Origin: a virus
Lineage: Duplodnaviria; Heunggongvirae; Uroviricota; Caudoviricetes
DNA length: 5,684 nt
Direction: 5' to 3' (one strand)
IMG/VR virus record: IMGVR_UViG_2698536552_000009
Shown one piece after another: positions 3,205 to 4,170 of this stretch. The number at the start of each line of letters is the position of its first letter. The stretch's first letter is position 1. The notes under the pieces are model-generated. The model was not told the origin of the DNA. It was given only the letters and a program-made list of their open reading frames with translations, and did no database searches. The position numbers and the translations under genes are program-made.

Positions 3205-4170
3205 TTACCTAACCAGATAATAATTACCATCTTCACCAACAATCTGACAATCACTTGGTAATTTATCAAGACACCACTTAGCTATTTTCCTGATTCTATT
3301 CTTTTGCTTAGAGGAGGTGAATGATTTGATTCGTTTTGGTTTGTTGGGTTGTTCTNNNNNNNNNNNNNNNNNNNNNNNNNNNNNNNNNNNNNNNNNNNNN
3401 NNNNNNNNNNNNNNNNNNNNNNNNNNNNNNNNNNNNNNNNNNNNNNNNNNNNNNNNNNNNNNNNNNNNNNNNNNNNNNNNNNNNNNNNNNNNNNNNNNNN
3501 NNNNNNNNNNNNNNNNNNNNNNNNNNNNNNNNNNNNNNNNNNNNNNNNNNNNNNNNNNNNNNNNNNNNNNNNNNNNNNNNNNNNNNNNNNNNNNNNNNNN
3601 NNNNNATGCCAAGATGTTCTGTCTAGCAATTTCAGCGAGTTCTTCATCGCTCTTATTAGTCATGTAAATAAACTGACCAGCACCTCTTGATGCCTTAACC
3701 ATCTTCACAATTCGATGTCCAGCAGGAAGACTACTAATCACGGCTGCGACGTTTTCTTGAAAAGTACCAAAACCATCATTATCTNNNNNNNNNNNNNNNN
3801 NNNNNNNNNNNNNNNNNNNNNNNNNNNNNNNNNNNNNNNNNNNNNNNNNNNNNNNNNNNNNNNNNNNNNNNNNNNNNNNNNNNNNNNNNNNNNNNNNNNN
3901 NNNNNNNNNNNNNNNNNNNNNNNNNNNNNNNNNNNNNNNNNNNNNNNNNNNNNNNNNNNNNNNNNNNNNNNNNNNNNNNNNNNNNNNNNNNNNNNNNNNN
4001 NNNNNNNNNNNNNNNNNNNNNNNNNNNNNNNNNNNNNNNNNNNNNNNNNCAAGCTCAATACGCTTGTCATGCTCTTTACGCTGAATAGTGATAGCTGGAT
4101 GTTCAGTCTGTGGCGACCAGTCACTGAAGCTATCAATCACTTTGCCATTAATGTAAATATCATTTGTCAT
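3205..4170 (-). CDS. Hypothetical protein, 321 aa as called (two internal N runs); Lys/Arg-rich C-terminal tail; function not recognised
   Basis: ATG at 4170-4168 preceded by GAGGAAAAG (SD GAGGA about 6 nt upstream); stop TAA 3207-3205. Visible segments MTNDIYINGKVIDSFSDWSPQTEHPAITIQRKEHDKRIEL / DNDGFGTFQENVAAVISSLPAGHRIVKMVKASRGAGQFIYMTNKSDEELAEIARQNILA / EQPNKPKRIKSFTSSKQKNRIRKIAKWCLDKLPSDCQIVGEDGNYYLVR are in one frame on both sides of each mask. The ORF-track start at 4218 is a GTG without RBS. Confidence 0.6.
   Translation of the reverse strand: MTNDIYINGKVIDSFSDWSPQTEHPAITIQRKEHDKRIELXXXXXXXXXXXXXXXXXXXXXXXXXXXXXXXXXXXXXXXXXXXXXXXXXXXXXXXXXXXXXXXXXXXXXXXXXXXXXXXXXXXXXXXXXDNDGFGTFQENVAAVISSLPAGHRIVKMVKASRGAGQFIYMTNKSDEELAEIARQNILAXXXXXXXXXXXXXXXXXXXXXXXXXXXXXXXXXXXXXXXXXXXXXXXXXXXXXXXXXXXXXXXXXXXXXXXXXXXXXXXXXXXXEQPNKPKRIKSFTSSKQKNRIRKIAKWCLDKLPSDCQIVGEDGNYYLVR

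Follow-up and report, generated by a model that had tools for sequence, protein, structure and literature searches.

Two orphan genes under one masked reading frame head the tail operon of an enterobacterial island that resembles a Felix O1-type phage satellite

Introduction

[quoted passage not shown] The recombinase of the PLEs is of the large serine type (Mathur, Boyd et al., Nature 2026, PMC12987554). In one of them, PLE11, an orphan protein named Rta blocks the TMP of the helper; it is encoded away from the PLE tail cluster and is restricted to one PLE variant (PMC12987554). The EPIP satellites of Mycobacteriaceae are likewise reported to combine a tape measure gene with a serine integrase (PMC12822802).

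Here, we describe a chromosomal island that is known from its sequence alone and is likened to these systems by gene content. The PLE satellites are its closest experimentally characterised counterpart. Like them, it is small, has a large serine recombinase, lacks capsid, sheath and tube genes, and carries a TMP and a hub of its own, both with relatives in a virulent myovirus; orphan proteins lie beside and around this module. Unlike the PLEs, it resides in Enterobacteriaceae, its candidate helper is a Felixounavirus, and the chaperone slot holds two proteins, p236 and p68, without TAC homology and without co-variation with the TMP. The island shares a tape measure and a serine recombinase with the EPIPs. 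Unlike the island, EPIPs carry genes for a terminase small subunit, a head-tail connector, a scaffold and a capsid (PMC12822802), and their host and gene set are unrelated to those of the island. No description of the island was found in the literature on a wrbA/ymdF island, on satellites of Felix O1, Felixounavirus or Ounavirinae, or on tape-measure satellites. It appears to be undescribed so far.

Results

Two genes under a masked frame

The window, i.e. the whole stretch of DNA analysed (5,684 nt), contains a minus-strand frame of 321 codons at 3205–4170, with an ATG at 4170 and a stop codon at 3205–3207. The first-pass annotation had described this frame as one 321-aa protein with a Lys/Arg-rich C-terminal tail, and its strand, ATG, stop and visible segments were confirmed. 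About half of the frame consists of N (blocks 3356–3605 and 3785–4049). The visible residues comprise 40 at the N-terminus, 59 in the middle and 49 at the C-terminus, the last including a highly basic stretch. When the masked ORF was used as a protein query, it matched 2,865 clusters, whose members are 236-aa proteins of E. coli, Shigella and Salmonella. The Shigella sonnei protein P0001 was 100% identical to the visible segments 3606–3784 and 4050–4170 and stopped at residue 236. Two unmasked contigs that encode P0001, L002 (Shigella sonnei, 14.1 kb) and L003, were 100% identical to the window at all visible bases. Both contained a 236-aa gene (p236) running to a TAA, a 24-nt spacer and a separate 68-aa gene (p68), and the same two genes were present in the RefSeq annotation of E. 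coli MSB1_9I. The spacer, which reads TAA TTA ATA ATT AAA AGG TGG TGG TGA, holds two in-frame stops (TAA, TGA) and the Shine-Dalgarno sequence of p68 (AGGTGG). The same arrangement was found in contig L001, with a spacer of 21 nt. The 321-codon frame is open because the N runs hide two stop codons; p236 and p68 lie by chance in one frame and were therefore joined by the masking. The "321-aa protein" is a masking artefact with two separate small genes underneath:

p236 gene: 3436–4170, minus strand; 236 aa, ATG at 4170 visible; P0001, L002 10001–10711
p236–p68 spacer: 3412–3435 (nominal), minus strand; 24 nt, masked; L002 10709–10738
p68 gene: 3205–3411, minus strand; 68 aa, of which only codons 19–68 (3205–3355) are visible; L002 10736–10942

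A single 321-aa protein was thus refuted by the unmasked identical copies. The basic stretch reported at its C-terminus is real, but it forms the middle of p68 rather than a tail, and the proposal of a nucleic-acid-binding tail gave way to a central linker of a separate 68-aa protein. In comparison with the 100%-identical unmasked contig, the N blocks 2822–3059, 3356–3605, 3785–4049 and 5012–5373 had length offsets of −9, +9, +15 and +118 nt, respectively. Positions and reading frames that span a mask are therefore nominal and unreliable. This applies to the end of p236 (nominally 3436–3445), because its stop codon lies inside block 3356–3605. The case shows that masked bases are able to merge adjacent genes into a false ORF.

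Many Shigella sonnei assemblies of the P0001 cluster contained contigs of approximately 10.7 kb that ended inside p236 ("transposase, partial", 197–228 aa). These contigs point to an assembly break that recurs in this lineage, or to an IS that has inserted in the gene or next to it.

Architecture and distribution of the island

Intact copies of the island were approximately 11–12 kb long. They encoded, in order, a small resolvase, a Dam methylase, a DnaD_N/HTH-like protein (weak match) and five small ORFs, followed by a leader of approximately 475 nt, p236, p68, a terminator hairpin, the TMP and the Dit-like hub. The island ended, after the hub, with a large serine recombinase (LSR) on the opposite strand, containing Resolvase, Recombinase and Zn_ribbon_recom domains. 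The domains recognised in the 11 kb were limited to TMP_3, Dit_like, Dam, Resolvase, the LSR and a weak DnaD_N/HTH; no capsid, terminase, sheath, tube or lysis gene was recognised in the island, and the small ORFs had no matches. The small upstream ORFs of the window, p101, p73 and p71 (minus strand; 4646–4951, 5431–5652 and, masked, 5012–5373), had no family matches, and the p101 alleles were deeply divergent (about 28% vs about 90% identity).

The same architecture was found with p236 alleles of 25–42% identity, with different recombinase types, and in Citrobacter. Other insertion sites were wrbA–ymdF, yciI–yciA and msyB–lpxL. The p236–p68 region was present in at least 467 of 5,426 complete E. 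coli genomes (roughly 9%), and the island gene set also occurred in Citrobacter and E. albertii. p236 was single-copy (median one place per genome) and always had the same synteny within the island. Both p236 and p68 were core genes, present in every island copy examined, and the order p236, p68, TMP was held in all loci. Circular or permuted island contigs were detected in at least four independent samples. Contigs L015 and L016 joined both ends of the integrated copy L013 (4432–15697) via the same 13-nt core, L058 was circular (11,233 nt, 55-nt terminal overlap) and L030 was permuted. Many gut-metagenome contigs were exactly one element long (approximately 11.2 kb), and no larger version of the island was found among the approximately 40 loci examined.

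Tape measure, hub and IS end

Downstream of p68, the window contains the following features:

TMP: 935–3106, minus strand; 726 aa unmasked, Pfam TMP_3 (E=2.4e-22)
Dit-like baseplate-hub pseudogene: 93–778, minus strand; split tblastn hits in L002
IS21-family (ISSso4-like) terminal region: 1–92, no strand assigned; three repeats of approximately 23 nt, ATGCCAAAYNNYGATCG; adjoins istA/istB

The island TMP was homologous to the Felixounavirus TMP over its full length, with 30% identity (tblastn, blastp). The N-terminal region of approximately 47 aa was approximately 74% identical, the C-terminal LLSSSYPEEE was identical, and the remainder was approximately 30% identical. The island TMPs (L001–L026) formed three allele types with 42–55% mutual identity, all of which retained the Felixounavirus-like N-terminus and the C-terminal LLSSSYPEEE. 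The alleles of TMP, p236, p68 and the recombinase were shuffled independently.

An intact hub homolog in L001 (261 aa) matched Pfam Dit_like (7e-19) and phrog_3721 (3.5e-126). The island hub shared 72% protein identity and up to 93% DNA identity with Felixounavirus. In the window, the hub DNA at 319–754 was 92–93% identical to Felixounavirus genomes, which implies recent exchange between the island and the virulent phage. Both genes, TMP and hub, trace back to virulent Felixounavirus (Felix O1-like) myoviruses. The hub copy in the window is a pseudogene, with an internal deletion of approximately 75 nt, a frameshift and a 3′ end cut by the IS. This IS21-family end, which is multi-copy (up to 34 places per genome), truncates both the island and its Dit-like gene in the window, and the recombinase end is absent from this copy.

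The operon and its structured leader

The p236 operon consists of a promoter, a structured leader with terminators, p236, p68, a terminator, the TMP and the Dit-like hub. Its non-coding elements in the window are:

Promoter of the p236 operon, sigma-70-type: 4516–4544, minus strand; TTGACA, 17 nt, GATGAT, with TG before the −10; near-consensus
Two conserved RNA hairpins in the leader: 4394–4447, minus strand; the invariant GAAAGGUGCAAUGCUUUUC (also given as GGUGCAAUGCUU), then an 11-bp stem
Two terminator-like hairpins in the leader: 4200–4316, minus strand; just before the p236 ribosome-binding site (RBS)
Terminator-like hairpin and T run in the p68–TMP gap: 3134–3179, minus strand; 15 pairs, L002 10968–11003, conserved in L001

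The leader is a non-coding region of approximately 475 nt before p236 (4171–4645), of which approximately 380 nt are structured (4171–4560 on the minus strand of the window, 9626–10000 in L002). The −35 element and its surroundings were invariant across 18 diverse leaders, and the −10 element was CATAAT in most other copies vs GATGAT in the window. From the promoter, the leader runs through a 5′ hairpin, the invariant hairpin, the 11-bp hairpin and the two terminator-like hairpins to the p236 RBS. Compensatory changes were observed in the 11-bp stem, with 6/18 predicted pairs double-compensated. The first terminator-like hairpin consists of GGCCC..GGGCU and a U run; the second, a long one, pairs AAAAAGCAUAC..GUGUGCUUUUU. 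Both were kept in divergent elements, and the leader was conserved in all element variants. Its predicted fold had an energy of −111 kcal/mol (z = −6.9). No Rfam family matched the leader, and phage DNA contained no equivalent of it. With the hairpin after p68, the operon has three terminator-like hairpins in total. This layout suggests that the operon is under termination/antitermination control, or that the leader encodes a small RNA.

Two orphan proteins under purifying selection

p236 is an acidic protein (236 aa, pI 5.3), and p68 is a basic one (68 aa, pI 9.7). Neither matched any entry in Pfam, NCBIfam, PHROGs or PADLOC, and sequence and profile searches against the PDB returned noise only. 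A tblastn search of 50,697 phage records with p236 (types I and IV), p68, the masked ORF and its 59-aa middle segment gave no hits; the phage-genome searches for p236 and p68 were negative even at E=1. Searched exhaustively with HMMER, 1.84 billion cluster representatives yielded 23 p236 matches, among them five full-length divergent relatives at 25–42% identity. The taxa with p236 and p68 were Escherichia, Shigella and Citrobacter, and Salmonella was also found among the clusters matched by the masked ORF. The p68 family comprised 60 clusters, from Escherichia only, every one annotated as "hypothetical".

The AlphaFold2 model of p236 had a pLDDT of 78.9 overall and of 85–96 for residues 66–220. 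In the model, the N-terminus is disordered, long helices span residues 66–100 and 170–219, and a small alpha/beta unit lies between them, around an invariant DNDGFG...LPxG motif. The predicted shape of p236, an acidic protein, is thus a hairpin formed by an antiparallel coiled coil and topped by a small alpha/beta head. Prefoldin/Skp-type coiled-coil holdase chaperones were considered among the nearest known counterparts. Short terminal motifs of p236 were conserved, and the C-terminal KxSxKYxKA was kept in all alleles. p68, whose ORF opens with MIDLTERYELIKAISERLKEQPNKPKRIKSFTSSKQKNRIRKIAKWCLDKLPSDCQIVGEDGNYYLVR, has an N-terminal helix, a K/R-rich linker (residues 22–45, pI 12) and a conserved C-terminal motif, KWCxDxxPxDxQIxGE; its basic stretch, KPKRIKSFTSSKQKNRIRKIAK, contains 10 K/R in 22 residues. 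Both genes were under purifying selection, with dN/dS values of 0.24–0.27 for p236 (within allele types) and 0.08–0.26 for p68, similar to that of the neighbouring TMP (0.25).

p236 fell into four allele types that have diverged deeply (about 85, 60, 40 and 26% identity). These types are exchanged as cassettes, with the flanks on either side conserved, and the exchange is independent of all other genes of the island. The alleles assorted independently of those of TMP, p68, p101 and the recombinase (Spearman about 0). Elsewhere in the island, contig L017 was near the window's copy, yet its p236 was only 26% identical. That p236 alleles are unlinked from the TMP argues against an allele-matched TMP chaperone and indicates a partner outside the island.

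The NCBI annotation pipeline (PGAP) named the type-I allele of p236 "transposase". The divergent alleles, type IV in E. coli and E. albertii and type III in Citrobacter freundii, were named "hypothetical". The transposase name, which thousands of database entries now carry, is without support: p236 and p68 contained no catalytic domain or fold of a DDE/RNase H, HUH, serine or tyrosine transposase, and no discrete multi-copy element with terminal repeats was found. A homing endonuclease was rejected as well. No LAGLIDADG, GIY-YIG, HNH or PD-(D/E)xK motif was present in p236 or p68, and there was no presence/absence polymorphism, both genes occurring in all island copies and in 0/50,697 phage records.

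Comparison with the Felixounavirus tail operon

The tail operon of Felixounavirus (e.g. Salmonella phage SP116) encodes sheath, tube, TAC (PF21822), TAC2, TMP and a Dit-like protein; the pair of genes preceding the TMP codes for the tail assembly chaperones, which have 132 and 79 aa (PF21822). TMP and hub of the island are homologous to their counterparts in this operon and follow the same order. Unlike the phage operon, the island has none of the other operon genes, the two TACs are replaced by the unrelated p236 and p68, and the pair is preceded by the structured leader of approximately 475 nt and followed by a terminator. p236 and p68 occupy the location of the Felixounavirus TACs, immediately upstream of the TMP.

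As TAC homologues, p236 and p68 were rejected. Alignment with the Felixounavirus TAC profile (hhalign) gave probabilities of 0.3% for p236 and 0.1% for p68, no Pfam TAC family matched, and BLASTP found nothing. Instead of the overlapping ORFs with a programmed −1 frameshift of TAC genes, p236 and p68 are 21–24 nt apart, with stop codons and separate Shine-Dalgarno sequences, and their relative frame varies among loci. A TAC-like co-evolution with the TMP was not observed either, with Spearman coefficients of 0.05 (p236 vs TMP) and 0.04 (p68 vs TMP).

These results also bear on the genomic context given in the first-pass annotation. The long upstream non-coding region (4171–4645) and the downstream terminator-like hairpin (3144–3179, followed by a T run) that it had pointed out are real, and its statement that the function was unrecognised holds for p236 as well as p68, for neither of which a homology-based assignment was possible. 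Its picture of an accessory gene inserted in a structural operon was correct in that a foreign pair sits just upstream of the TMP when compared with the Felixounavirus tail operon, but not in that this was an insertion into a phage operon. The empty site proposed for relatives does not fit a pair that none of the 50,697 phage records contains and that no examined copy of the chromosomal island lacks, and no motif or fold of a nuclease or a homing-endonuclease-like protein was found. Full-length homology to a standard tail component such as a chaperone, with conserved synteny, had been named as the observation that would overturn this picture; the synteny was observed and the full-length homology was not.

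Discussion

The island is active and widespread, and it looks like a satellite of Felix O1-type phages. It has its own integrase and an excised circle, no phage head, sheath, tube or lysis genes, and a TMP and hub related to those of a candidate helper, the features by which PLE-like satellites are recognised. Because it combines the absence of head, sheath, tube and lysis genes with a Felixounavirus-derived TMP and hub, it is most likely a phage satellite; its lifestyle and the identity of its helper are what we infer from these hallmarks.

We tentatively propose that p236 and p68 may be satellite-specific, non-enzymatic factors of tail assembly or tail hijacking, a reading that is based on the analysis of gene order, alleles and predicted structure. 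The element is integrative and excises as a circle, and p236 and p68 would be co-transcribed at the head of a "late-type" operon. The satellite would build chimeric tails from helper parts and its own TMP and hub, as in the Vibrio PLEs, with a TMP that retains the terminal segments, putatively for docking, of Felixounavirus. p236 and p68 would fill the slot of the tail assembly chaperones as non-homologous occupants. p68 may act as a small basic partner of p236, and the two proteins may help the TMP and hub of the island into helper tails.

An alternative that we consider possible, though unlikely, is that p236, perhaps together with p68, is an interference or defence protein directed against the helper, similar to Rta of PLE11. 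It would bind the TMP or TAC of the helper and block its tails, and the divergent TMP of the island would escape. Like Rta, p236 is an orphan without recognisable signature that is found only in satellite-like elements. Its cassette-swapped, divergent alleles show the pattern expected for tracking an external, fast-evolving partner, and the core of the island TMP has diverged to approximately 30% identity with the helper TMP, with the termini kept. However, p236 is a universal core gene that heads the tail operon, whereas Rta belongs to one PLE variant and is encoded away from the tail cluster. The dN/dS of p236 within allele types also corresponds to ordinary purifying selection, and p236 had no PADLOC match.

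It is improbable that p236 is a helical scaffold that redirects capsid size, as P4 Sid or PLE TcaP do, resulting in small heads, with p68 as a CpmB-like partner. A length of 236 aa and a mostly helical, elongated predicted structure would fit such a protein, as would the conservation of the C-terminal KxSxKYxKA in all alleles and the size of the element (11 kb) compared with that of the helper genomes (approximately 86 kb). The C-terminus of p236 had no similarity to head, scaffold or protease proteins of Felixounavirus.

Equally improbable is a role of p236, p68 or both as regulatory or recombination accessories, i.e. as a recombination directionality factor (RDF) of the serine recombinase, an antiterminator or an activator, with the linker of p68 binding nucleic acid. 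Known RDFs of serine integrases are mutually unrelated and range from approximately 60 to approximately 250 aa; in its small size and basic character (pI 9.7, linker pI 12) p68 resembles some of them, and the three terminator-like hairpins and the conserved structured leader of the operon are also consistent with such a role. Against it stand the acidic nature of p236, the lack of a detected HTH or other DNA-binding domain in both proteins, and alleles of p236 and p68 that do not co-vary with the LSR type (e.g. L001 vs L006–L010).

We regard it as very improbable that the region is merely what decay has left of a temperate Felix-like prophage, itself unsampled, and that p236 and p68 are leftovers without a current role. 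The broken hub gene and IS21 insertion of the window's copy, and the annotation of neighbouring genes as phage genes by NCBI, would agree with decay. However, the same compact gene set recurs at several sites, with different recombinases, in at least 467/5,426 E. coli genomes, in Citrobacter and in E. albertii; circular forms were present in at least four samples, the genes are under purifying selection, and the approximately 40 loci included no larger version. Finally, p236 is almost certainly neither a transposase, for which the PGAP product name of the type-I allele is the one argument, nor the nuclease or homing endonuclease suggested earlier, given that Pfam and NCBIfam contain no transposase, recombinase or nuclease domain match, that the predicted fold, a coiled coil with a small domain attached, gave no match of the RNase H, HUH or HNH-like kind, and that the gene has one copy, an unvarying synteny and no inverted repeats of its own.

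A wider picture can be drawn, which we offer as a possibility that is more doubtful than not. A widespread family of satellites of approximately 11 kb in Enterobacteriaceae, of which the window would be one copy in local decay, would parasitise virulent Felix O1-type myoviruses through chimeric tails that contain the tape measure and hub of the satellite, p236 and p68 would be new tail-hijack or selectivity factors replacing the chaperones of the helper, and the leader, with its conserved structure and successive terminators, would be a switch that keeps the operon silent until helper infection. Chimeric-tail piracy, so far shown only for the Vibrio PLEs, would then extend to enteric bacteria. 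Felix O1-type phages are widely used for the typing of Salmonella and E. coli, for biocontrol and for therapy. If the island hijacks or poisons the tails of these phages, both phage efficacy and gene transfer would be affected.
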